Of a stretch of 64,000 bases of DNA, positions 9,930-61,530 are shown in pieces. A model generated the notes under the pieces. The model worked only from the letters and a program-made list of their open reading frames with translations, was not told where the DNA came from and did no database searches. The DNA lies in the NCBI GenBank assembly GCA_018302545.1, contig JAGVZM010000002.1, forward strand, positions 2,198 through 66,197, read 5' to 3'. The DNA is from Candidatus Woesearchaeota archaeon. GTDB taxonomy: Archaea > Nanobdellota > Nanobdellia > SCGC-AAA011-G17 > GW2011-AR18. The translations under genes and the position numbers were made by a program. How positions within the stretch are numbered: position 1 is the stretch's first letter; each line of letters starts with the position of its first letter.

Positions 9930-10448
9930 ATGAATTCAAAAAAAGGTGCGATTGAACTTTCTATGACTACTATCATAGTTATTGTATTAGGAGTAACTTT
10001 ACTAATTTTAGGTTTGGTTTTTGTAAGAGGAATATTTGATAAGTTAGGAGGATTAACAGAAAAGTCCTTCTTGATAGCAGATAAAGAATTACAAGATAGA
10101 ATTGGAGCTTCAGATAGAATCTATGTCCCCGGAGTGGACTTTGAATTAGAACCGGGAGCATCAACAACAATCACAATTGGAATACAAAATCTTGCAACAA
10201 ACGACGAAGCAACACCATCAACTTTTAAATTAGAAGTGAAACCTGGAGATGAAGCAAGTAAAAGATTAAAAGTAACTCTACCTCCAGAACAAAGCCTAAG
10301 GATAGGACAAAGTAAAGGATTACCTCTAAAGGTGCAATTACCAGAAGGTTCAAATCCTGGAACAAGTTATTCTTTAACTATTAGAGTTCTAAAAAATAAA
10401 GAATTATATGATGAACAATCAATATTCATTTCTGTAAAAAAATCTTAA
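9930..10448 (+). CDS. type IV pilin-like protein with class III signal peptide
   Basis: MNSKKGAIELSMTTIIVIVLGVTLLILGLVFV: KG followed by a charged residue then a hydrophobic helix; Thr/Ser-rich beta-rich C-terminal region. Confidence 0.45.
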   Translation: MNSKKGAIELSMTTIIVIVLGVTLLILGLVFVRGIFDKLGGLTEKSFLIADKELQDRIGASDRIYVPGVDFELEPGASTTITIGIQNLATNDEATPSTFKLEVKPGDEASKRLKVTLPPEQSLRIGQSKGLPLKVQLPEGSNPGTSYSLTIRVLKNKELYDEQSIFISVKKS

Positions 10449-15557: not shown

Positions 15558-16562
15558 ATGAAATTACCGTTTGAAGAAGAAAATAGAAAAATTTTAGTGA
15601 AGAAAGAAGCTTCCACAGATCCCAAATTTGGGAAAAAACCAGAAGAACGAACAGTAAGAGAACTGTTAGAGTCTTCGGTAATATGTTTAAACAAAGTAGA
15701 AGGTCCTTCTTCACACCAAGTAGCAGACTATGCAAAAAAAGCTCTAGAAGTAGAAAAAATCGGTCACGGCGGGACACTTGGAATCTTTTAAGATTAGTGA
15801 AATCCTGCAGTAACTGGGGTTCTACCTATATCTATAGGAAAAGCTACAAGAATAATGGAGGCTCTTCTAAAATCAGGAAAAGAATATATTTGTTTAATGC
15901 ACATACATACTAAAGTTCAACAATCAAAGATACACAAAGTAGCTAAACAATTCTTAGGAAAAATAACCCAAATGCCTCCTGTAAAGTCTGCAATTAAAAG
16001 ACAATTAAGACAAAGAGAAATTTATTACTTAGAAATCCTAGAAATAAAAGATCAAGATGTACTTTTCAAAGTAGGATGTCAAGCAGGAACCTACATAAGA
16101 ACACTCTGTGTTGGATTTGGAAAAGAATTAGGAACCAATGCGCACATGCAGCAATTGATAAGAACAAAGGCAGGACCATTTAATGACAAAGAATGGTATT
16201 CTCTACAAGACATAAAAGACGCATATCAATTATACAGAGAAGAAAAAGAAGAACAATTAAAGAAAATTCTAAAACCAATAGAGTTTGCCATACAACATTT
16301 ACCTAAAGTATGGGTAAATGATAATACTATAGATTCAATATGCCATGGCGCATCATTAAAAGTCCCAGGAATAATAAAAGTCCATTCAAAGATAGAAAAA
16401 GAAGAATTAGTAGCTATAATGACTTTAAAAGAAGAATTAGTTGCTTTAGGAACATCAAAGATGAATTCAGAAGAAATGATAAAAAATCAAAAAGGATTAG
16501 CAATAAAAACAACAAAAGTCTTTATGGATCGAAATACATACCCTAATTTTAAAAAAGCTTAA
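15558..16562 (+). CDS. cbf5: H/ACA RNP pseudouridine synthase Cbf5 (TruB family), interrupted by a 21-nt BHB intron at 15781..15801; spliced product about 327 aa
   Basis: exon 1 ends ...EVEKIGHGGTL + G; exon 2 supplies AT-CCT-GCA... giving [35 protein letters not shown]; colinear with Cbf5 through the C-terminal PUA domain. Confidence 0.8.
15781..15801 (+). other. predicted archaeal BHB (bulge-helix-bulge) pre-mRNA intron in cbf5
   Basis: GAATCTTTTAAGATTAGTGAA holds TAA, TAG and TGA in frame; exon CACT pairs intron AGTG (4-bp central helix); 3-nt bulges TG|G and AA|A; 6-bp outer helices GCGGGA/TCCTGC and AATCTT/AAGATT. Confidence 0.75.
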
Positions 16563-21942: not shown

Positions 21943-23814
21943 ATGACAAATCCAGAAAATCAACTAATAGACCAAAGATTACAAAAATTAGAAGAAATAA
22001 GAAAGTTAGGAATAGAGCCATATCCCTATTCATACAAAACAAATACTACAGCAAAAGAAATTAAAGAAAAGTTCTCAAAATTAAAGAATGAAGAAAAAAC
22101 TAAAGCTAAAGTATCCCTCTCTGGAAGATTAATGACTATTAGGAGAATGGGTAAAGCATCTTTTGCTCACTTACAAGATCACACAGACAAGGTACAATTC
22201 TACATAAGAGAAGATGAAGTAGGAAACTCTGAATATGAAATATTTAAAAAATTAGATATGGGCGACATTATAGGAATAGAAGGAATAATATTCAAAACAA
22301 AGACAGGAGAAGTTTCTATATGGATAAAAAAATTAACTTTCTTATCTAAGTGCCTACGTCCCTTACCAGAAAAATGGCATGGATTAAAAGATGTAGAAGC
22401 AAGATACAGACAAAGATATCTAGACTTAATAGCAAATCCAGAAGTAAAGGAAATATTCATAAAAAGATCTAAAATAGTATCTGCTGTAAGAGAATTTTTA
22501 GAGATGAAAGGTTATATTGAAGTAGACATTCCAACTTTACAACCTCAATATGGGGGAGCAAATGCAAAACCATTCAAAACCCATATTAATGCTTGGAATA
22601 TAGATCTATATTTGAGTATTTCACCAGAGTTATATTTAAAAAAATTAATAGTTGGAGGATTTGATAAGGTCTTTACTATTTGTAAAAATTTTAGGAATGA
22701 AGGGGTTGACAAAACGCATAATCCAGAATTCACAATGATGGAGTGTTATGCAATAAATGAAGACTATAATTATTTATTAGAATTAATCGAAGATTTATAC
22801 ATATATGCAGCTGAAAAAGTTTTAGGAACAACAAAGATAACTTATCAAGGACAGAAAATTGATTTGAAAAAACCATGGAAAAGACTAACAATGTATGAAT
22901 CACTAAAACAATATGCTAATTTAGATGTCTCAAAAATGTCAGATAAAGAATTAATAAAACAAGCAAACTCACATGGGGTTCAAATAGAGAAAAATACACC
23001 AAGAGGATTAATAATTGAAGCATTATTTGGAGAACTAGTAGAAAAACATCTTATTCAGCCCACTCACCTAATAGATCATCCAAAAGAGACAACACCACTA
23101 TGCAAAGTAAAAAGGGGAGATGAATGTCTAATCGAAAGAGTCGAACCTTATATTAATGGATGGGAAATTGGAAATGGTTATTCTGAATTAAACGATCCAA
23201 AGATACAATATGAATTATTCAAAGAACAAGAAGAAAGAGGAAGAGCGGGAAATGAGGAATTCCATCCAATGGACGAAGATTATGTTAAAGCTTTAGAAAC
23301 AGGTTTACCTCCAACAGCAGGAGTTGGCTTAGGAATTGATAGAATGGTAATGTTACTAACAGATTCCACTACAATAAGAGATGTAATATTATTCCCTACA
23401 ATGCGTCCAGAAAATAAAGATGAGGAAAAAATAACAAAAGAAAATATTTTAGAACAAGAAGGAATAATAGTTGGCAAAGTAGTAAAAATAGAGAAACACC
23501 CAAATGCAGATAATTTAAAAATATGTACTATAAACATAGGAAATAAAGAGGTAATTTCTGTAACAAACTGTAAAAATGCAAGAGAAGGAATGATAATTCC
23601 AACAATATTAACAGGAACAAAATATTTTGATTGGAAAGGTTCAGGAAAAATATTAGTAGCAAAAAGATCAGAGTTAAGAGGAATAGAAAGCAACGCTATT
23701 ATGGGCGCTGGAGAAGAAATAGGATTGCCAACTCCAGAAGACAAAAGAGAATTAATATATGAACTAAAATCCGGAAAACCAGGAGACAAAGTAAAAGATC
23801 ATATACATAGATAA
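21943..23814 (+). CDS. lysS: lysine--tRNA ligase, class II, fused to C-terminal EMAP-II/Trbp111-like tRNA-binding domain
   Basis: N-terminal OB anticodon-binding domain; motif 2 FRNEGVDKTHNPEFTMMECY; motif 3 GLGIDRMVMLLTDSTTIRDVILFP; C-terminal VGKVVKIEKHPNADNLKICTINIG. Confidence 0.85.
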   Translation: MTNPENQLIDQRLQKLEEIRKLGIEPYPYSYKTNTTAKEIKEKFSKLKNEEKTKAKVSLSGRLMTIRRMGKASFAHLQDHTDKVQFYIREDEVGNSEYEIFKKLDMGDIIGIEGIIFKTKTGEVSIWIKKLTFLSKCLRPLPEKWHGLKDVEARYRQRYLDLIANPEVKEIFIKRSKIVSAVREFLEMKGYIEVDIPTLQPQYGGANAKPFKTHINAWNIDLYLSISPELYLKKLIVGGFDKVFTICKNFRNEGVDKTHNPEFTMMECYAINEDYNYLLELIEDLYIYAAEKVLGTTKITYQGQKIDLKKPWKRLTMYESLKQYANLDVSKMSDKELIKQANSHGVQIEKNTPRGLIIEALFGELVEKHLIQPTHLIDHPKETTPLCKVKRGDECLIERVEPYINGWEIGNGYSELNDPKIQYELFKEQEERGRAGNEEFHPMDEDYVKALETGLPPTAGVGLGIDRMVMLLTDSTTIRDVILFPTMRPENKDEEKITKENILEQEGIIVGKVVKIEKHPNADNLKICTINIGNKEVISVTNCKNAREGMIIPTILTGTKYFDWKGSGKILVAKRSELRGIESNAIMGAGEEIGLPTPEDKRELIYELKSGKPGDKVKDHIHR

Positions 23815-32089: not shown

Positions 32090-33397
32090 TTAATGACGGT
32101 TTGATTTCTTCTTAACATTACTAGAAGCCATTTTAAGCATTTTTAAAGCATAATTAACAGGATTCTTGCATTTACTACAAATACCGTCATCACATTTAAT
32201 GCTCATAGTTTTATAATAACTAGGGTTATCACAATTAGGAGGCAAAACCAATTTCTTCTGCCTTTTAAACCAACTTATCTGAGCCTTAACATAACCTTCT
32301 CTTAAAGGTTCAGCATTTCTTTTATTCCACTCAAGCATAAACTTCTCTATATCTTCTAGATTCCAACCAACATTTTGTAAAAAGTTAACTAAAATAAAAA
32401 TGCCTCTCTTCCTTCCATCTTCCTCTACGCCTTGCATTAATTTTAAAATACAAGGAGGAAAATAATCAACCTTTATTGGAACCTTAGGAGCCTCAAACTT
32501 TCTAGTAATTGTTATTTGTTTCTCTTCAATATAATTAGTTTTTCTAGCCCAATCAAAAGCTTGTATCAACAAATTTTTAGCTTCATCCTTTTCAACATTC
32601 TCTGAATCTAAAAATTTCAATCCAAATTTGACATTATCTATCTTTGCCTGTCTAATGTCAAAATCCTTAATAGTCTTCAAAGGTATACTAACTAACCCAG
32701 ATTTTTCATTTATACTATAAGCACATCTAAACAAATGTCTACTAGATATTAAAACACTATCGATATCTACTAACTTAAAAGGATCCAATTTATTCTCTTT
32801 AATAACATCTTCAACTTTTTTTCCAACACTCTTAGCAGCATCTTCTACTGTATGAGTCTCTAAAATCTTAGCACTTAAATGTTCTTTAATCATATTCTTA
32901 AGATATTCAGAAATAACTCTCACACCATCAGGAAAATAATCTTTTATATTAACATTATTAACATTAGAAGGGAAAGCTTCAAAAGGAATACCAATATGGA
33001 ATCCACGATTACCTGAATATTTTATAGAAAAATTCTTAACATCATTAAACCTTAAAGCATCTTCTAAAAATTCAGCGCACATAATACTAAAGTTTAAATT
33101 TTTACTATCCAAATCCAAGATACAACTCCAACCAATCCTTAAGTTATCTAATTCTTTCTTACTCAAACCACTTTCAAGCATCATAGGATCTTTCCAAATT
33201 TCCTCACTAACATGAAAAGAAGTCATACCTTGTTTAACTAAATCATTAATATCTCCCTGAAAATTAACAATCTCTGGTCTTTTTCCCCTAATATCTCCAA
33301 ACCAAGCCTGAACCTCTCTATTTTGAGATAGTCTCATCAATTCTTTTTGAACTTCGTTTTGAGAATAATACTCTTTTATTTTTTTAAGATCAGACAT
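32090..33397 (-). CDS. priS: archaeo-eukaryotic DNA primase small-subunit (PriS)-like protein with C-terminal Cys-cluster extension
   Basis: AEP motifs ILDLDSKN (DxD) and YSGNRGFHIGIPF (SGxRGxH); C-terminal CDNPSYYKTMSIKCDDGICSKC. Confidence 0.55.
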   Translation of the reverse strand: MSDLKKIKEYYSQNEVQKELMRLSQNREVQAWFGDIRGKRPEIVNFQGDINDLVKQGMTSFHVSEEIWKDPMMLESGLSKKELDNLRIGWSCILDLDSKNLNFSIMCAEFLEDALRFNDVKNFSIKYSGNRGFHIGIPFEAFPSNVNNVNIKDYFPDGVRVISEYLKNMIKEHLSAKILETHTVEDAAKSVGKKVEDVIKENKLDPFKLVDIDSVLISSRHLFRCAYSINEKSGLVSIPLKTIKDFDIRQAKIDNVKFGLKFLDSENVEKDEAKNLLIQAFDWARKTNYIEEKQITITRKFEAPKVPIKVDYFPPCILKLMQGVEEDGRKRGIFILVNFLQNVGWNLEDIEKFMLEWNKRNAEPLREGYVKAQISWFKRQKKLVLPPNCDNPSYYKTMSIKCDDGICSKCKNPVNYALKMLKMASSNVKKKSNRH

Positions 33398-49027: not shown

Positions 49028-49477
49028 ATGAAAGATTGCCTAAGAATGTTATTACCACTAGTTGCAATGGCTAGTTGTTTAGAATCAGGTTGTATAAATC
49101 CAAGAGGAACATATCAAGAAGTAACTAGAACAAAAGGCCCAAGTTCGATAAATTCAAAAACAATTAATTATGGTTTTGCTAGTTCAAAAAATAATGAAGG
49201 ACGAATACAAGTAGCAACCTTATCTTATGGAATAACAAGAGATAAAACTTTCAGAAATTTAAATGATAAATTAGCACAAGCAAAATATGATCCAAAAAAA
49301 TGTTCAGAATTGCCAATATATATAGAAATAACAAGCCATTCTCTAGGAAGATTAGAAAGCAATTTAGAGAGAGGGATAAAAGGCCTAGAAAACTCAAGAG
49401 ATTATCAAGAACTAAAATTGGCAACAAGATTAGAAATGAAAGTTTATAAAGATGAAGCAAGAAAAATATGTAACTAA
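49028..49477 (+). CDS. hypothetical secreted/lipoprotein-like protein
   Basis: MLLPLVAMASCLESGC signal with lipobox-like Cys. Confidence 0.35.
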   Translation: MKDCLRMLLPLVAMASCLESGCINPRGTYQEVTRTKGPSSINSKTINYGFASSKNNEGRIQVATLSYGITRDKTFRNLNDKLAQAKYDPKKCSELPIYIEITSHSLGRLESNLERGIKGLENSRDYQELKLATRLEMKVYKDEARKICN

Positions 49478-50223
49478 GCCTCAAAATCAAATTCATTAAT
49501 TATCTCTTTTCCATCTAGATCTAACTTTCTAACTATCTTACCCTTTTTCTTTGCATGGATTCTAGCCAAAGCAAAATCATTTTGATATTCTTTAGGAACT
49601 ATTATCTCATTAATTATAAAAGTATGATTTATTTTACAAGATTTGAAAGAATCATGAACATCAAAAACAAAGTCTCTAAGAAGGTTCTTATCTGAAGTAG
49701 TAAAAGTACAATAATCTGCCTTAGCATCTTCATCTCCTTTCCCAGGTTTAGCAGACTTAGGACTCTTAACTTTTGTTTTCAAAGAACCATAATCATTAGT
49801 AAAAGTTAAACAATAAACAGCATCTGAAAACTTATTCATCGCATTCAAAATATCATCTTTAGATAAATCCGTATTAATCATATAAGTTCTAACACCTTGA
49901 AATTGTTTAGTCTTATCAATAGGAATTCCTGTAACTTGTTCAAAATCTTTAGCTGTTGTTATAATACCCCCTGTAACATTAACTTTAGTTGTTATTTTTT
50001 CAGCCAATAATCTAACAAATCCTTCTGCGTATTCAAAGCTGGTCTTAATCTTAATTTTAGAACCAACAGTAATTTCCATTATGGCCCTATCTTTAAATTC
50101 GCCTTTACTAAATCTCTTAAATTGTCTATGCTCAAAATCCCCAACAGTTCCCTCAAAAATATTTTTAATAAAATTCATCTTCCAAACATTTCCTTGTATT
50201 TTTTTTCTCCAAATAAAATCCAA
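49474..50223 (-). CDS. hypothetical protein
   Basis: ORF with normal composition. Confidence 0.4.
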   Translation of the reverse strand: MDFIWRKKIQGNVWKMNFIKNIFEGTVGDFEHRQFKRFSKGEFKDRAIMEITVGSKIKIKTSFEYAEGFVRLLAEKITTKVNVTGGIITTAKDFEQVTGIPIDKTKQFQGVRTYMINTDLSKDDILNAMNKFSDAVYCLTFTNDYGSLKTKVKSPKSAKPGKGDEDAKADYCTFTTSDKNLLRDFVFDVHDSFKSCKINHTFIINEIIVPKEYQNDFALARIHAKKKGKIVRKLDLDGKEIINEFDFEA

Positions 50224-50289: not shown

Positions 50290-53200
50290 TTATTTACTCT
50301 TTTTTAAATCTTTTCTATTCCTAACATTAAAAATAGAGTAGTAAACAATCAATAAAACTAAAGCAAAAACTAAAGCCCCTATGCCCCAACCAGGAATATT
50401 GTTGGATTCAAAACCAGTAGCACAAACCCCTACAACTCTAAGCGGACTACTCAAACCCATTGCTGTAGCTTCTGCTTGAGTTATTTGATTGGTATTACAA
50501 ACATCAAAACCTAAAGCTGCAAAATTCTGACCACAAGTAACCTCAACATCATCCAACTCTCCATCATTATCTAAATCAATACAACTCTTAAGATTAACAA
50601 AGGACGTCCCAGGAATACCTCTTGTACAAGATTGGCAACAATTAGGTTCATTTATATTACCAGATAAAGAAAGATTACCATTACAAGCTTCACCAACACC
50701 GCATAAATATCCTCTAACACTACCGCAACTAACTGATCCTCCACCAGGACCTCTACCTATTATACTTCCACAATCGTTTCTACAAACACCATCACCACAA
50801 CAAGTCATTCCTCCAAGACAGTCATTATTATTAAGACACTGCCCTCCTATATTAGTAATTCCAGTATACAAAAGACAACTAGGACAAAAACTAGAATTAA
50901 ATCCTCCTAAAGCATTTTCTAGATCAGAAACAGGACCATAATGAATCCAACCTAAGTAAAGATAAGTAGCATTCATAGGAGCAACATAATTAAAATTTAT
51001 TATACCATTCAAAACAGGTATAGCTGTTAGAGTATCTAAAACTACAAGAGAATTAGTATCATTAAATCCAACAACAAAGCTAGTTGCATATCCTGAGAAT
51101 ATTGAAGAACCTCCTCCAAAAGTTGGATCTTCTCTTACACAACTACACTGCAAACTAACTGTTTGACCAACAACAGCTGTAACCATCATTCCTCTATTAG
51201 TTATTGCAGTTCCATTGTTCCAGACACATTCAGTTTGACAAGTATTAGAACAAATAGGATCAGGAAGAACTCTACAAATACCAGAATTCGCACCTTGTTG
51301 AAGAGCGCTACTTCCACTATTAAGATCACAATAAAATCCAGTGCCTAAGGAAGAACAATCATTATTACTACTACAAGTAACAACCTCACATAAACTAGTT
51401 GAAGGATTACAAACCTCAGTTAACCCACAGTCATTATTGGTATTACAAATTGAACAAGTTCCAGTTTGACAAATCAGACATTGCCCAACTAAAGGATTGC
51501 TAGTTCTTAAACATCTTGCATCAGGATAATTCTGACAAGTTCTACCAATCCTACAACCAGAAACACACTGACATCCATCACAAACTTCCCCAATACTACA
51601 ATCACTATCAAAAACACAACTAGCATTAACAATATGAAGTAATTGATCATTTCTATTTCCAGAATCACAAATTAAATTATTATTTGTAGAATTTAGAAAA
51701 TTAAAAGCATATCTTCCCTCATCTAAAAAAGCAGAAGATAAGAAACCAGTACTACCAAAACGAATTGGTGAATAATTACCATATGAAAAAGAGTTATTAT
51801 CTAAATCTCTTAAAGTAAAATTCAAAGATCCACTATTCAAAACATTTCCTTGTGAATCTAACAAACAAGAAAGATAACCTATAGCAGAGTCTCCCTCTTC
51901 AATCGTTAAATTATATCCATTACCGCTATGTAAAATACGGCCGTCAGTCCAATTACAAGAAGGATTACAATTTAAACCTAAATTAGGATCTCTAACTTGT
52001 AAAACCCCTCTAAAGTTATCTACAGAATTACAATTAGGATTAGGAGCACCACCAACTGTAAATATATAAACCCCAGGAGTAGAAGGAACAAAAGATCTAA
52101 TAGCATTACCATTAGTAACACCAATATTAGTATCCACTAAAACAGGGGCAGTTAAACTATTAAAGATATTATAAATCACCAAATTTGTATTTGTGCTATC
52201 TAACAAAGCACCAGAAGAATCTTGTAAACATGAAGCATTTATCATAACATTATCTCCTGTGTTTACACTAACAACATTAGGACCTGAAAGATAATTCCCT
52301 CCTTCCCACTGACAACCAAGATTACATGATACACTAGAAGCTGCCCTAAGAAGACAACTAACTTTATTTCCATCATTATTACAAGAGTAATTAGGATCAC
52401 AAAAATATTGTCCTAATTGATAAACATTTTTACAAGAAGCAAAATCACCAGAACAACTCCATCCATCAGAGACATAACCACAAAGACCTTGATGAGTACC
52501 ACCACCAATTTGAGGACTAACACAAATATTAGTAGAAATATCACAAGTTTCTCCAAGATTACAATCAGAGTTACTCAAACATCCAGGTCTACAAAGACCA
52601 CTAGAAAAATCACAAAAATTACCACTAGGACAAGTAAAACTTTGAGAAGAACAAGTAAAAGTACAAATACCAGGGCTAGCAACTCTTAAATCACAAGTTT
52701 CTCCAAGATTACAATTATTGTTGCTCAAACATCCAGGTCTACAAATTCCAGAAATAGTATCACAATAATTTCCCGAAGTACAAGGAGCATTTTGTCCACA
52801 ATTGTTAGGTGATTGAATTCCACAAATTCTAGTATTAGGATCACAATAATTAGAGCTACACTCTATGTTATTATTACATGAAAGTCCATCAGTTTTTTTA
52901 GGATCACACGAAACACCACTTCCTATATTACTGCAATAATAATTAGTATTACAAAAATATTCTGATGCAGTTAGACCCGAAACTTGTTTACAAGAAGTAA
53001 AATCCCCTGAACAATACCATCCATTTATAGTATCCCCACAATATCCAATATAATTAGTTATAGTAGTTCCACCACTTTGTTGTCCAATAACACAAGTATT
53101 AGTAGTAAAGTCACAAGTCTCACCAGTATCACAAAATTGATTTATTTGTCCACAAGGAGCTCCAGGTATAGCAAAAACAAGTTCAATAGAAAATAAACTA

Positions 53201-53304
53201 ATTAAAACAGCAATAAGTAAAAATAATCCCCTCTTTAACATATAAAATAGAACATCAAAATAGCTATTTAAAATTATTCTTTTAATCAGACCAGATAGAA
53301 ACAA
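50290..53304 (-). CDS. giant (1004 aa) cysteine-rich cell-surface protein with tandem Cys modules and C-terminal TM anchor
   Basis: N-terminal TM/signal; repeated CxSGNxCDxxSGxCRPGCLSNxxCNLGETCD modules; C-terminal GIGALVFALVLLIVYYSIF then basic tail. Confidence 0.55.
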   Translation of the reverse strand: MFLSGLIKRIILNSYFDVLFYMLKRGLFLLIAVLISLFSIELVFAIPGAPCGQINQFCDTGETCDFTTNTCVIGQQSGGTTITNYIGYCGDTINGWYCSGDFTSCKQVSGLTASEYFCNTNYYCSNIGSGVSCDPKKTDGLSCNNNIECSSNYCDPNTRICGIQSPNNCGQNAPCTSGNYCDTISGICRPGCLSNNNCNLGETCDLRVASPGICTFTCSSQSFTCPSGNFCDFSSGLCRPGCLSNSDCNLGETCDISTNICVSPQIGGGTHQGLCGYVSDGWSCSGDFASCKNVYQLGQYFCDPNYSCNNDGNKVSCLLRAASSVSCNLGCQWEGGNYLSGPNVVSVNTGDNVMINASCLQDSSGALLDSTNTNLVIYNIFNSLTAPVLVDTNIGVTNGNAIRSFVPSTPGVYIFTVGGAPNPNCNSVDNFRGVLQVRDPNLGLNCNPSCNWTDGRILHSGNGYNLTIEEGDSAIGYLSCLLDSQGNVLNSGSLNFTLRDLDNNSFSYGNYSPIRFGSTGFLSSAFLDEGRYAFNFLNSTNNNLICDSGNRNDQLLHIVNASCVFDSDCSIGEVCDGCQCVSGCRIGRTCQNYPDARCLRTSNPLVGQCLICQTGTCSICNTNNDCGLTEVCNPSTSLCEVVTCSSNNDCSSLGTGFYCDLNSGSSALQQGANSGICRVLPDPICSNTCQTECVWNNGTAITNRGMMVTAVVGQTVSLQCSCVREDPTFGGGSSIFSGYATSFVVGFNDTNSLVVLDTLTAIPVLNGIINFNYVAPMNATYLYLGWIHYGPVSDLENALGGFNSSFCPSCLLYTGITNIGGQCLNNNDCLGGMTCCGDGVCRNDCGSIIGRGPGGGSVSCGSVRGYLCGVGEACNGNLSLSGNINEPNCCQSCTRGIPGTSFVNLKSCIDLDNDGELDDVEVTCGQNFAALGFDVCNTNQITQAEATAMGLSSPLRVVGVCATGFESNNIPGWGIGALVFALVLLIVYYSIFNVRNRKDLKKSK
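52541..52745. repeat. intragenic direct repeat (two about 55-nt copies, about 90% identical, 52541..52595 and 52691..52745)
   Basis: TCACAAGTTTCTCCAAGATTACAAT...CTCAAACATCCAGGTCTACAAA occurs twice; encodes repeated Cys module. Confidence 0.5.
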
Positions 53305-53689
53305 ACATTAAGATAGTAACTAAAGGAAATAAATTTGTTATAAATGCATATTGTGGGAAAAACCAAACACCCACCATTATTTCAACAACAGCAATAATTG
53401 CAAAAATTTTGCTCATGTGATGTCCCCTTCTAGCAAATACCCAAAATAAAACAAAAGCACCTATCGCACCAGCAAGATCAAATAAACCATTATCAAAACT
53501 TAATAGATCTATAGCATCAACAGCAATTGCAAAAGGTAGTTTCCACAAATCCAAAGCAATATCTAAAAAGTGTTTTAAAGAAAACAAAACAGCAAAAGCC
53601 AGAACAATACCAAAAATAACCCAACCATAATCAAAAGGTTTACTAACAGAATTAACAACAAAACCTGTTAAATCATCTAAACCGAACAT
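53282..53689 (-). CDS. hypothetical integral membrane protein
   Basis: 4 TM helices. Confidence 0.35.
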   Translation of the reverse strand: MFGLDDLTGFVVNSVSKPFDYGWVIFGIVLAFAVLFSLKHFLDIALDLWKLPFAIAVDAIDLLSFDNGLFDLAGAIGAFVLFWVFARRGHHMSKIFAIIAVVEIMVGVWFFPQYAFITNLFPLVTILMFVSIWSD

Positions 53690-53798: not shown

Positions 53799-54212
53799 TT
53801 AATCTTTAGAAATTATTGCATAAATAGCTTTTCCAGGCAACCTCTTTCTAAACCCAGACTTAGCATATTTAATATAACTATTTTTCAAATTAAAATTTAA
53901 CCAAGAATCCATCCAACCTTGAGCAGTATAAACTAAATAATGCCCAGAAGGATATTTTTTAGATCTCTGGATAAAAACAATAGTATTTTCTTTATATCTA
54001 ATTCTTTTATTTCCAATGTATCTATAAAAATATTCTCTTCCAGAAATTCTTAAAGCATTAACAAGGTCTTTACAAATAAATCCCCTAATTCTAGCTAGTG
54101 TAGAATATCTAAAATAATTCTTTTTGGAATAATTATAAGAGTTACCGCAAATGAAAGAAACACATGCAATACCACAACCTAAAGGATCCTTTTGGACAAC
54201 AGCATTTTTCAT
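53799..54212 (-). CDS. papain-like cysteine peptidase domain protein (peptidase C39-like)
   Basis: putative catalytic Cys in DPLGCGIACVSFICG and His in SGHYLVYTAQG. Confidence 0.4.
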   Translation of the reverse strand: MKNAVVQKDPLGCGIACVSFICGNSYNYSKKNYFRYSTLARIRGFICKDLVNALRISGREYFYRYIGNKRIRYKENTIVFIQRSKKYPSGHYLVYTAQGWMDSWLNFNLKNSYIKYAKSGFRKRLPGKAIYAIISKD

Positions 54213-54263: not shown

Positions 54264-55061
54264 ATGAAAAAGTTCATACTAATTCTAGTGATGTTAATTC
54301 TAATAATAAGTTGTACTAACAAAGATAAACCTACAAAAGAGGATAAAAGAACAGAGATATACCTCCCATCCCCAGGAACAACTTGGCAATGGCAATTATC
54401 AGGAAAAATAAATACCAATTATAATGTAGAATTATATGATGTTGACCTATTTGAGACATCAATAGAAACAATTAATGAATTACATAATAGAAATATAAAA
54501 GTAATCTGCTATTTCTCAGCAGGTACATTAGAAGAATACAGAGAAGATTATGAAAATTTTCCCAAGGAGATAATAGGTAAAAGCTTATTAGAATGGCCAG
54601 ATGAAAAATGGTTAGATATATCTAATTATAAAAAGTTTTCAGATATCATGGCAAAGCGTATGGATTTAGCTGTAGAAAAAAATTGTGATGGTATTGAACC
54701 AGATAATGTAGATGCATATACTCAGGATAGTGGCTTCAATTTAAGCTACGATAATCAATTAGAATATAATAAGTGGTTAGCAGAAGAAGCACACAAAAGA
54801 AATTTATCTATTGCGTTAAAAAATGACCTAAATCAAGTTAAGGATTTGGTAAATTATTTTGATTTTGCAATAAATGAACAATGCTTTTTATATAATGAAT
54901 GTGAATTACTCCTTCCCTTTATTAAACAAAATAAAGCAGTTTTAGGAGTAGAATACGAATTAGATTTACACCAATTTTGTAAAGAAGCAAATTCATTAAA
55001 TTTTAGTTGGTTGAAAATGGATTTAGAATTAGACGGCAGTAGAGAATCTTGCAACAATTAA
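54264..55061 (+). CDS. glycoside hydrolase family 114-like (endo-alpha-1,4-polygalactosaminidase/PelA-hydrolase-like) lipoprotein
   Basis: lipobox LIISC; TTWQWQLSG, VICYFSAGT, KWLDISN, CDGIEPDNVDAY characteristic of GH114. Confidence 0.6.
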   Translation: MKKFILILVMLILIISCTNKDKPTKEDKRTEIYLPSPGTTWQWQLSGKINTNYNVELYDVDLFETSIETINELHNRNIKVICYFSAGTLEEYREDYENFPKEIIGKSLLEWPDEKWLDISNYKKFSDIMAKRMDLAVEKNCDGIEPDNVDAYTQDSGFNLSYDNQLEYNKWLAEEAHKRNLSIALKNDLNQVKDLVNYFDFAINEQCFLYNECELLLPFIKQNKAVLGVEYELDLHQFCKEANSLNFSWLKMDLELDGSRESCNN

Positions 55062-55093
55062 GTATTTAAAGTTTCATAAAATTTTGAAATCAT

Positions 55094-55202
55094 AGTCCCG
55101 TCGTCTAGATTAGTTTAAAAACTAAAGACAACGGCCCAGGATCGAGGACTCTGGATCAATAGGAGAAATCCTTGGACGGCAGTTCGAATCTGCCCGGGAC
55201 TA
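55094..55202 (+). tRNA. tRNA-Gln (anticodon CTG) with two predicted introns: D-loop (55109..55131, 23 nt) and canonical 37/38 (55155..55167, 13 nt)
   Basis: acceptor AGTCCCG/CGGGACT + A; T-arm GGCAG-TTCGAAT-CTGCC; anticodon arm GAGGA-CTCTGGA-TCCTT after splicing; D-stem strand GTCT pairs intronic AGAC mimic (central BHB helix) with 7-bp intron hairpin. Confidence 0.6.
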
Positions 55203-55337
55203 TTTTTCCAATAAATTTAAATAACTTTAGTCTTAATCTATTTTCATGAAAACATCAAAGCTAATACAAAATAAGTATTTTTTCTTAGCCATGCTTATGA
55301 TGTTCTAATAGCCTAAAATATTTAGGAGGCCATTGCA

Positions 55338-57527
55338 ATGATAAAAAACAACAAACAGATAGAAGAAGGAACTTTTAAATATCTAGAACTATCAAAGAAA
55401 AAAATGAAGAAAAAGTTTTATATCACAACACCAATTTACTATGTAAATGATAAACCTCATGTTGGTCATGCATATACTACAATAATAGCAGATATTCTAG
55501 CAAGGTGGCATAGATTAAAACAAGAAGATGTATTTTTCCTAACTGGATTAGATGAAAACGGACAAAAAACAGTCGAAGCTTCTATAAAGTTCGGATTTAA
55601 AAGTCCACAAGCATGGTGTGATTATATAGCAGAAGAATATCTAAAAACATGGAAAAATCTAAACATAAGCAATGATGATTTTATAAGAACAACAGAAGAA
55701 AGACACCATAAACTTTCTATAGAGTTCACAAAAAAAGTTCAAAAAAAAGGAGACATCTATAAAGGAAACTATATAGGATTATATTGTGAAGGTTGTGAAG
55801 CATACATAACAGAATCAGAATTAACAAAAGAAGGTTTTTGTCCAAATCACAATAAAAAACCAAAGGAGTTACATGAAGAAAATTACTTTTTCAAATTAAG
55901 TAAATATGATAAACAATTACTAGAACATATAGAGAATAATCCAAGTTTCATACAACCCGAGTTCAGGAAAAAAGAAATTATTAATTTCATAAAGCAAGGA
56001 TTAAAAGATATAAGTATCTCTAGGCAGAGTTTAACATGGGGAATTCCTTTTCCTGGAGATGAATCTCAAAGAATTTATGTTTGGTTTGATGCATTATTAA
56101 ATTATTTGCACCCAAAGGAATATTGGCCTGCAAATATACAAATGATGGGTAAAGAAATAATAAAATTTCATTGTATAATCTGGCCGGCAATGCTTCTCTC
56201 AGCCGGATATAAACTTCCAAAAAAAGTATTTGCTCATGGATGGTTAACAATAAATGGAGAAAAGATGTCTAAATCTTTAGGCAATGCTATAGACCCAAAT
56301 CACCTTACTAAAACATTTGGAACAGATGCATTAAGATACTATTATGCAAGAGAAGTACCTTTAGGAAATGATGGAGATTTTTCAGAAAAACAATTAGTAG
56401 CTAGATTAAACAATGAGCTAGCAAATGAACTAGGCAACTTAATTTCAAGAACCTTAACTTTAATAGAAAAAAAATTAAATTCAGAAATAAAAAAAGATAA
56501 GGTAGATAAAACATTATTCAAAGATTTAAAGGTTAAACAAATCGACAAGTTCATCCAAGATATAGAACCCCATAATGCAATTGCATTAATTTTTCATTTT
56601 ATACATTCATGTAATCAATATATTAGCGAAAAAGAGCCATGGAACATCAATAAAGAAAATGAATTAAATAAAATACTCTATAATTTAACAGATGCTATTA
56701 GAATAATATCAATATTGCTCTATTCATTTCTACCAGAAACATGTGAAAAGATTCATAAACAATTATCTTTAGACACTAAAAAATTAAGTTTAGCTCAGGC
56801 TATTCCTGGAATATTAACAACAACAAAAATAAACAAAGGAGAAATTTTATTCCAAAAAGTAATTTTCAAAGAAACAAAAGATGTTTTCAAAAATCCTAAA
56901 TGTTATGTAACTCCAGAAGTGCAAAGATTAGGAATTAAAGTTAAATTTGCAGAATTAATCAACCTAAATATAAAAAAGAAACATATGGGTTTAGAAAAAT
57001 TAAAATCTGAAATAAAGAAAAGTTTCAAACCGAACATAAGAGTACTAAAAGGATATGATAATTACTCTAGATTATTAAACATAGAAGAAGGACAATGCTC
57101 AGTCTACAATTTAATGGATTTAGTTGAAGAAAACGGAAAACTTCCAACAATAAATACAGCTGTAGATAGTTATAATATTATATCTCTTGCTAAAAGCCTT
57201 GTTGTAGGTGCTCATGATAGAGAACATGTAAAGGGACCAGTGAGGTTTGATATTTTTAAAGGAAATGAATTATACATCCCATTATTCACAAATGAAAAAA
57301 AATCAGTTAATAAAGGAGAATTTGGTTGTATTGATGATGAAAAAGTTCTTTGTAGACTAGATATTAAACAAGGCGATCAAACAAAGGTGACAGAAAAAAC
57401 AAAGAATATTATTCTTTATGTACAAGGAAATGAATATACTTCAGAAGAATATTTGCAGGAAGCAATAGAAGAAATTTGTAAGTTAATGATTAGATTTTGT
57501 GATGGAGAATATAAAATATTAAATTAA
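55338..57527 (+). CDS. metG: methionine--tRNA ligase (MetRS) with C-terminal B3/B4-like domain
   Basis: HVGHAYTT (HIGH), EKMSKSLGN (KMSKS), anticodon-binding helical domain; C-terminal about 200 aa with INTAVDSYNIISLAKSLVVGAHDREHVKGPVRFD resembling the PheT B3/4 domain. Confidence 0.85.
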   Translation: MIKNNKQIEEGTFKYLELSKKKMKKKFYITTPIYYVNDKPHVGHAYTTIIADILARWHRLKQEDVFFLTGLDENGQKTVEASIKFGFKSPQAWCDYIAEEYLKTWKNLNISNDDFIRTTEERHHKLSIEFTKKVQKKGDIYKGNYIGLYCEGCEAYITESELTKEGFCPNHNKKPKELHEENYFFKLSKYDKQLLEHIENNPSFIQPEFRKKEIINFIKQGLKDISISRQSLTWGIPFPGDESQRIYVWFDALLNYLHPKEYWPANIQMMGKEIIKFHCIIWPAMLLSAGYKLPKKVFAHGWLTINGEKMSKSLGNAIDPNHLTKTFGTDALRYYYAREVPLGNDGDFSEKQLVARLNNELANELGNLISRTLTLIEKKLNSEIKKDKVDKTLFKDLKVKQIDKFIQDIEPHNAIALIFHFIHSCNQYISEKEPWNINKENELNKILYNLTDAIRIISILLYSFLPETCEKIHKQLSLDTKKLSLAQAIPGILTTTKINKGEILFQKVIFKETKDVFKNPKCYVTPEVQRLGIKVKFAELINLNIKKKHMGLEKLKSEIKKSFKPNIRVLKGYDNYSRLLNIEEGQCSVYNLMDLVEENGKLPTINTAVDSYNIISLAKSLVVGAHDREHVKGPVRFDIFKGNELYIPLFTNEKKSVNKGEFGCIDDEKVLCRLDIKQGDQTKVTEKTKNIILYVQGNEYTSEEYLQEAIEEICKLMIRFCDGEYKILN

Positions 57528-61321: not shown

Positions 61322-61456
61322 CGCAAGTTCAAATCACAAGAGTTTCGCAATATTTAAGTAATACAAGCCATAAGTACAATATAACTAGGAGAAAACAAAA
61401 CAAGAGGGTGAAGCGTTATTCGTCAAAACCCACTCTCGAAAGTTCAGATCATAAAG

Positions 61457-61530
61457 TGGGCCCGATGTGATTTGAACACACGACCCCTACCTTATCAGAG
61501 TAGTGCTCCACCAAGCTGAGCTACGGGCCC
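61457..61530 (-). tRNA. tRNA-Ile (anticodon GAT), intron-less
   Basis: reverse complement GGGCCCG-TA-GCTC-AGCTTGGTG-GAGC-A-CTACT-CTGATAA-GGTAG-GGGTC-GTGTG-TTCAAAT-CACAT-CGGGCCC-A. Confidence 0.85.

Follow-up and report, generated by a model that had tools for sequence, protein, structure and literature searches.

[quoted passage not shown] In Aeropyrum pernix, the pre-tRNA-Thr2(UGU) carries a BHB intron in its D-loop, which is spliced both in vivo and in vitro and which EndA removes without a guide RNA or a modification (Hirata et al., 2011, PMC3241643). For the broad-specificity EndA of A. pernix, this D-loop intron is a slower substrate than one in the anticodon loop, and the A. fulgidus enzyme, which is of narrow specificity, hardly cuts it (PMC3241643). 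A tRNA gene that we analysed within a 64,000-nt stretch of DNA (referred to as the window) likewise has a BHB intron in the D-loop, whereas the A. pernix case belongs to a crenarchaeon with an (alpha-beta)2 EndA bearing a Crenarchaea-specific loop, concerns another tRNA, and involves a single intron.

Non-canonical and multiple BHB introns are already an established class, best known from Thermoproteales and also described in Nanoarchaeota, Thaumarchaeota, Korarchaeota, and ARMAN (PMC4090602, PMC4033280, PMC3239211). Similar to the gene in the window, the multi-intron tRNA genes of Thermoproteales/Crenarchaeota (Sugahara et al., 2007, 2008, as described in PMC4090602 and PMC4033280) combine an intron at 37/38 with at least one non-canonical BHB intron, the intron mimics a stem strand to form the central helix, and standard finders miss the genes. 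The gene in the window differs from this class in belonging to DPANN rather than TACK, in its setting of 29% GC, and in its strict 3-4-3 BHB motifs in place of relaxed hBH/HBh' forms. Site 15/16, where its D-loop intron lies, was absent from the positions named in the available text of the review (20/21, 22/23, 25/26, and others), in which slash-separated numbers defeat a text search.

Within DPANN, tRNA introns have been linked to EndA variants, namely epsilon2 with an L2 loop and alpha4 with an L3 loop (PMC3239211, PMC5829648). In most DPANN lineages EndA is of the alpha4 type and has the additional L3 loop, a feature that goes along with a larger number of disrupted tRNA genes (PMC5829648). 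Disrupted DPANN tRNA genes such as those of ARMAN-2 (PMC3239211, PMC5829648) come from the same superphylum as the gene in the window and also have non-canonical and multiple introns, but the ARMAN-2 introns described there are T-loop introns (53/54 and 59/60), unlike the D-loop intron considered here (PMC3239211). We found no description of D-loop introns in tRNA-Gln in the available sections of PMC3239211 and PMC5829648. This literature flags incomplete tRNA sets as a sign of hidden disrupted genes, and the survey in PMC5829648, which included one Woesearchaeota genome, states that such sets call for manual searches. According to a 2026 preprint that covers 208 complete Nanobdellota genomes, tRNAs for every standard amino acid other than Trp and Val were detected in each genome, so that Gln is included; non-canonical introns are not discussed in it (10.64898/2026.05.13.725050).

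Structure of the gene and of its two BHB motifs

The gene occupies part of the 276-nt spacer that separates a GH114 glycosidase gene (54264-55061) from a methionyl-tRNA synthetase (MetRS) gene (55338-57527). This MetRS is 100% identical to a Candidatus Woesearchaeota archaeon protein, with DPANN archaea as its next relatives, and the window further encodes aRF1, S19e, L31e, a Cbf5-like protein, Hjc, a fused primase, and a ribosomal-protein cluster. Given this archaeal gene content, we assign the window to an archaeal chromosome. In our reading, which takes the splicing from the sequence, the 109 nt very probably constitute a tRNA-Gln(CUG) gene that is functional and doubly spliced, in a tiny, uncultivated archaeon of the Woesearchaeota (DPANN), with the parts listed below.

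55094-55202, + strand: complete tRNA-Gln(CUG) gene, 109 nt; three exons and two predicted introns; CCA not encoded
55094-55108, + strand: exon 1, tRNA positions 1-15; acceptor 5' strand AGTCCCG, U8 and C9, D-stem 5' strand GTCT (55103-55106), A14 and G15
55109-55131, + strand: predicted intron 1, 23 nt, ATTAGTTTAAAAACTAAAGACAA; non-canonical site 15/16 in the D-loop; A, hairpin UUAGUU-UAAA-AACUAA (55110-55125), D-stem mimic AGAC (55126-55129), AA
55132-55154, + strand: exon 2, positions 16-37; D-loop remainder CGGCCCA, D-stem 3' strand GGAT (55139-55142), C26, anticodon stem 5' strand GAGGA, CUCUGG with anticodon CUG (55151-55153)
55155-55167, + strand: predicted intron 2, 13 nt, ATCAATAGGAGAA; canonical site 37/38
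55168-55202, + strand: exon 3, positions 38-73; A38, anticodon stem 3' strand TCCTT, variable loop GGAC, T-arm GGCAG-TTCGAAT-CTGCC, acceptor 3' strand CGGGACT, discriminator A
55063-55070, + strand: TATA-box-like TATTTAAA, 24-31 nt upstream of the gene; putative archaeal promoter
55203-55207, + strand: TTTTT immediately following the discriminator base; putative archaeal oligo-T terminator

The first-pass annotation had described a 109-nt gene in which GTCT is followed by AG and a 23-nt insert, and the sequence reads exactly so. The second insert splits the anticodon loop as CTCTGG↓A (the arrow marking the splice site) above the stem GAGGA/TCCTT. The exons have a GC content of 61.6%, compared to 17% in intron 1, 31% in intron 2, and 29% in the window and genome, as is commonly seen where structural-RNA exons adjoin AT-rich filler in a genome that is itself AT-rich. 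The placement of TATTTAAA fits an archaeal TATA box at about -26, and this element may serve as a promoter. A sigma-70 promoter scan was set aside as irrelevant to an archaeon.

In archaeal pre-tRNAs, positions 32-35 form the central helix of the BHB, and each 3-nt bulge lies 3' of its 4-bp strand; in the canonical motif, the 5' bulge comprises positions 36 and 37 and the first intron nucleotide, and the 3' bulge the last two intron nucleotides and position 38. The whole gene was searched for sites that follow this strict 3-4-3 rule. For the 15/16 intron (gene nt 16-38), the central helix is GUCU/AGAC and the bulges are AG↓A and AA↓C, flanked on the inner side by a helix of 6 bp and on the outer side by one of 3 bp (C9-G, U8-G, and G7-C), of which G7-C competes with the acceptor stem, leaving 2 non-competing bp. 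For the intron at 37/38 (gene nt 62-74), the central helix CUCU(32-35)/GGAG comes with the bulges GG↓A and AA↓A; the anticodon stem and its extension supply an outer helix of 7 bp, and the inner helix, of only 1 bp, is the weak side of this motif. Both introns therefore have 3-nt bulges, a 4-bp helix, splice sites inside the bulges, and flanking helices. An exhaustive search, in which one or two strict-BHB deletions were combined with an ARAGORN call over the full product, returned three solutions, each with the intron 16-38, and only the combination of 16-38 and 62-74 flanks both motifs with helices. Such ARAGORN-based enumeration is permissive and gave many poor alternatives for the relatives discussed below, so that solutions were ranked by flanking-helix support.

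In the unconstrained minimum free energy (MFE) fold of the precursor (-35.8 kcal/mol, z = -2.3), the acceptor stem and T-arm form unaided, together with the GUCU/AGAC helix, the AGA bulge, and the intron hairpin UUAGUU/AACUAA. When the 23-nt insert was shuffled, a 4-bp central helix arose in 1.4% of trials and a central helix together with an inner helix of at least 6 bp in 0 of 200,000; chance is excluded as the origin of the structure of this insert. For the 13-nt intron, shuffling gave a central helix with at least one inner pair in 0.7%.

These results correct the first-pass annotation in one structural detail. It had identified AGAC, in the 3' part of the insert, as the D-stem mimic and central BHB helix, which holds; AGAC occupies intron nt 18-21 and is followed by AA, so that the very 3' end lies beyond it. 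The 7-bp hairpin it had drawn (TTAGTTT/AAACTAA) is in fact one of 6 bp with a 4-nt UAAA loop in the MFE fold, since a seventh U-A pair would leave an impossible 2-nt loop. Its 13-nt insert at 37/38 of the CTCTGGA loop is present and sits in a strict BHB. It had also called intron mimicry of a stem strand typical of non-canonical archaeal introns, and the strict BHB found here agrees with this, as do the multi-intron crenarchaeal genes. As an interpretation, it is supported in all its elements.

Several other genes in the window deserve a brief mention. MetRS (+ strand, 729 aa) ends not in the usual C-terminal tRNA-binding domain but in a B3/4 domain (PF03483, aa 581-711), which is familiar from the beta subunit of PheRS; this ending is common to many DPANN homologues, and one of them (P0092, 987 aa) adds AlaRS-type domains. 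A class II Asp/Asn/Lys-type aminoacyl-tRNA synthetase of 623 aa (21943-23814, + strand) has a tRNA_bind domain (PF01588) appended at its C-terminus, and one 435-aa ORF (32090-33397, - strand) with the domains of both the small (PF01896) and the large (PF04104) primase subunit represents a fused PriS-PriL. The Cbf5/TruB-like pseudouridine synthase (15855-16562, + strand, 235 aa) matches only the C-terminal part of TruB_N (profile 69-149), in addition to TruB_C_2 and PUA; its catalytic N-terminal part may be missing, separately encoded, or hidden by a mis-set start. A 1004-aa ORF (50290-53304, - strand) is without a Pfam match, as are its neighbours 53282-53689, 53799-54212, and 49474-50223. A Pfam search of 38 window ORFs, a set outside which most of the ribosomal-protein cluster falls, yielded neither EndA nor RtcB.

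The predicted spliced product and its exon junctions

ARAGORN with default settings made no call on the unspliced gene, and its sole call in the whole window was a tRNA-Ile(GAT) at 61456-61530. Likewise, the Rfam tRNA model RF00005 did not match the unspliced gene at the gathering score nor at E<=10, as is expected given the two introns, and the tRNA-Ile was the single match in the window at the gathering score. In E-value mode, Rfam offered no other RNA family for the region, every match being far below its gathering score. A structural scan of the window for a T-arm with acceptor closure over 68-174 nt returned only this gene and the tRNA-Ile, and the full structural pattern had one match in the window and none in 100 shuffles; exact T-loop matches elsewhere, at 10348 and 61327, do not belong to tRNAs.

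Deleting both inserts (55109-55131 and 55155-55167) gave a 73-nt product that ARAGORN called as tRNA-Gln(ctg) with all four stems intact, which confirms the tRNA-Gln(CUG) identity assigned earlier. The spliced cloverleaf has a 7-bp acceptor stem, a 4-bp D-stem, a 5-bp anticodon stem, a 5-bp T-stem, a 7-nt anticodon loop with U33, and a T-loop of the form TTCRAAT. ARAGORN made no call when the anticodon-loop insert alone was deleted. With only the D-loop insert deleted, its intron mode called a tRNA with the second intron at 36/37, 'Pyl(cta)', which we rejected as a placement without a BHB. On the unspliced gene, intron mode made no call, or, at lowered stringency, called a tRNA-Ser(aga) with a 40-nt intron, which is spurious and has poor stems.

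A comparison with intron-free orthologues provides a test of the junctions. A search of the genome collection with a structural tRNA-Gln pattern yielded 78 genes, nearly all of them from DPANN, and the intron-free 73-mers (73 of 78-79 genes, 50 distinct sequences) share the D-region GTCT-AG-YGGYCAA-GGAY. Once spliced, the gene in the window reads GTCT-AG-CGGCCCA-GGAT, one base off this consensus, and the exon junction reproduces the D-loop of the orthologues. Over its 15 nt, exon 1 agrees fully with the start of most of the intron-free DPANN tRNA-Gln genes; in a minority of these genes, position 9 is A or G. The acceptor strands AGTCCCG/CGGGACTA are the same as in these genes, and the resemblance to tRNA-Gln includes the A1-U72 pair.

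From the 50 distinct intron-free DPANN sequences we built a weight matrix and used it, with no recourse to the BHB rules, to score the 50,498 distinct 73-nt products of one or two deletions from the gene. The proposed product ranked first of the 50,498 at 100.2 bits, within the range of real genes (88.9-120.8 bits) and compared to a mean of -44 for all products. An ATC repeat makes the deletions 62-74, 63-75, 64-76, and 65-77 yield one and the same product, and a BHB exists at 62-74 (37/38) only.

Introns at the same site and elsewhere in the D-arm

A metagenome scan, limited to enlarged D-loops, found 14 further genes, two of which have a 15/16 intron. The first (L081), a Gln-CUG gene, combines a 21-nt intron at 15/16, ATCGAATTAAATCGAGGACAA, with a 14-nt intron at 37/38; the second (L088), a Gln-UUG gene, has a 22-nt intron at 15/16, ATTGTCCCAAAGACAAGGACCA, and is without a second intron. 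The three 15/16 introns follow a common plan, consisting of A, a hairpin, RGAC, and two bulge nucleotides, in the same register and with different hairpin sequences. In the three-gene alignment, 97.9% of the pair cells hold standard pairs, compared to 38-56% when the partners are slid, and double changes occur in ten pairs, including four of the six hairpin (inner-helix) pairs. None of 500 shuffles matched the values observed for these three sequences, and at this depth of alignment the covariation is indicative of a conserved intron structure. Homologous 37/38 introns occur in L018, L027, and L081.

The gene in the window, L081, and L088 sit in unrelated gene contexts. Tblastn searches with the window's flanking proteins gave no match to L081, L088, L018, L035, or L053, and no tRNA-Gln was present upstream at the loci of two MetRS homologues with 62-69% identity (P0005 and P0016). 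Since these synteny searches came back empty, orthology is judged from the tRNA sequence alone.

The possibility that the locus is a tRNA pseudogene or decaying duplicate, whose 23-nt D-loop insertion is never removed, would account for its being missed by standard finders, and the genome outside the window may hold another tRNA-Gln(CUG). However, the insert has exact BHB geometry with boundaries that restore the orthologous D-loop, every stem of the spliced product is intact, TATA-like and oligo-T signals flank the gene, and the compensatory changes in the 15/16 introns of two other genomes indicate selection on structure; we therefore regard a pseudogene as highly improbable.

We give an equally small chance to a real gene whose D-loop intron is shifted by one nucleotide to 16/17, leaving A16 instead of C16. 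The corresponding deletion, 17-39, was the runner-up in the matrix test at 97.9 bits, and A16 is seen in some intron-free orthologues. Nevertheless, 17-39 has no strict BHB, as the central helix and bulges fit 16-38 only, and both L081 and L088 are in the 15/16 register.

tRNA genes are common targets of integration. A third alternative takes the two inserts for remnants left by a mobile element that integrated with duplication of an att site in the tRNA gene, and not for spliced introns, in line with a proposal mentioned in PMC3239211 that integration disrupts tRNA genes. It is the least probable of these alternatives and can be practically dismissed, because no integrase or mobile-element gene adjoins the locus between GH114 and MetRS, inserts of 23 and 13 nt contain no duplicated tRNA segment beyond the 4-nt stem mimic, and they show BHB geometry and covariation.

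Besides the genes with an intron at 15/16, other DPANN tRNA-Gln genes contain strict-BHB introns at other sites, as follows.

Strict-BHB intron at 20a/20b: L093, L094
Strict-BHB intron at 21/22: L018, L035, L085, L087, L090, L091
Strict-BHB intron at 22/23: L053, L082, L084
Introns at about 30/31 together with 37/38: L083 (301-411), L086 (326-436), L089 (1980-2090), L092 (325-435)

The genes with introns at 20a/20b, 21/22, or 22/23 resemble the gene in the window in being tRNA-Gln with near-identical exons, and in their strict-BHB introns of 16-35 nt with A...AA-type ends. They differ from it in the site used, and in that their central helix is drawn from D-loop nucleotides (GGCC/GGCU and similar), whereas that of the gene in the window involves a D-stem strand. 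The use of four neighbouring D-arm sites in different genomes, with most relatives intron-free, suggests repeated intron gain or sliding.

The four genes in the last line are near-identical 111-nt metagenomic tRNA-Gln(UUG) genes, each with a 21-nt intron in the anticodon stem (at about 30/31) and a 16-nt intron at 37/38, which lie 8 nt apart and are both in strict BHB.

Predicted processing and implications

For the doubly spliced tRNA-Gln(CUG) gene, we propose the following course of events. Transcription would yield a 109-nt precursor, in addition to a leader and a trailer, with two introns that are spliced by proteins. In this precursor, GUCU (10-13) is predicted to pair with AGAC of the intron instead of its mature partner GGAU, and this helix, the 6-bp intron hairpin, and the short outer helix (C9-G and U8-G) would together form a 3-4-3 BHB that holds the splice sites at 15/16 in the bulges AG↓A and AA↓C. 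We infer that this conformer is favoured until excision, because GUCU/AGAC consists of four Watson-Crick pairs, compared to GUCU/GGAU with two G-U pairs. A second BHB would form at the canonical 37/38 site, where CUCU (32-35) is expected to pair with GGAG of the intron. In whichever order the introns are removed, EndA would cut inside each 3-nt bulge and an RtcB-type ligase would join the three exons, after which the D-stem could refold as GUCU/GGAU, with CCA added later. As the EndA of A. fulgidus barely cuts a D-loop BHB, cleavage here needs a suitable enzyme, which by analogy is probably a DPANN alpha4-type EndA with an L3 loop (PMC5829648).

Judged at the sequence level, the gene shows every feature by which the class of non-canonical and multiple BHB introns is recognised. 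The understanding of tRNA splicing is unchanged by it, and its main value lies in annotation and as a data point for an apparent D-arm hot-spot. With regard to annotation, neither ARAGORN nor the Rfam tRNA model detects the gene, so that without a BHB-aware search such genomes seem to lack tRNA-Gln(CUG), and missing tRNAs in DPANN genomes are sometimes taken for gene loss or split genes. It also adds to the DPANN catalogue, in a group whose splicing endonucleases are only partly characterised, a clean strict-BHB D-loop intron at 15/16 that is conserved with covariation.

The relatives offer a case of one tRNA family with introns at several neighbouring D-arm sites. That the D-arm of tRNA-Gln is a DPANN hot-spot of recent intron gain, sliding, or transposition is a tentative suggestion, which we think somewhat unlikely. 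If true, it would imply that DPANN endonucleases of the alpha4/L3 type efficiently cut BHB motifs buried in the D-loop, and that tRNA introns turn over fast in reduced genomes, which would make these genes a tractable system for studying intron movement.
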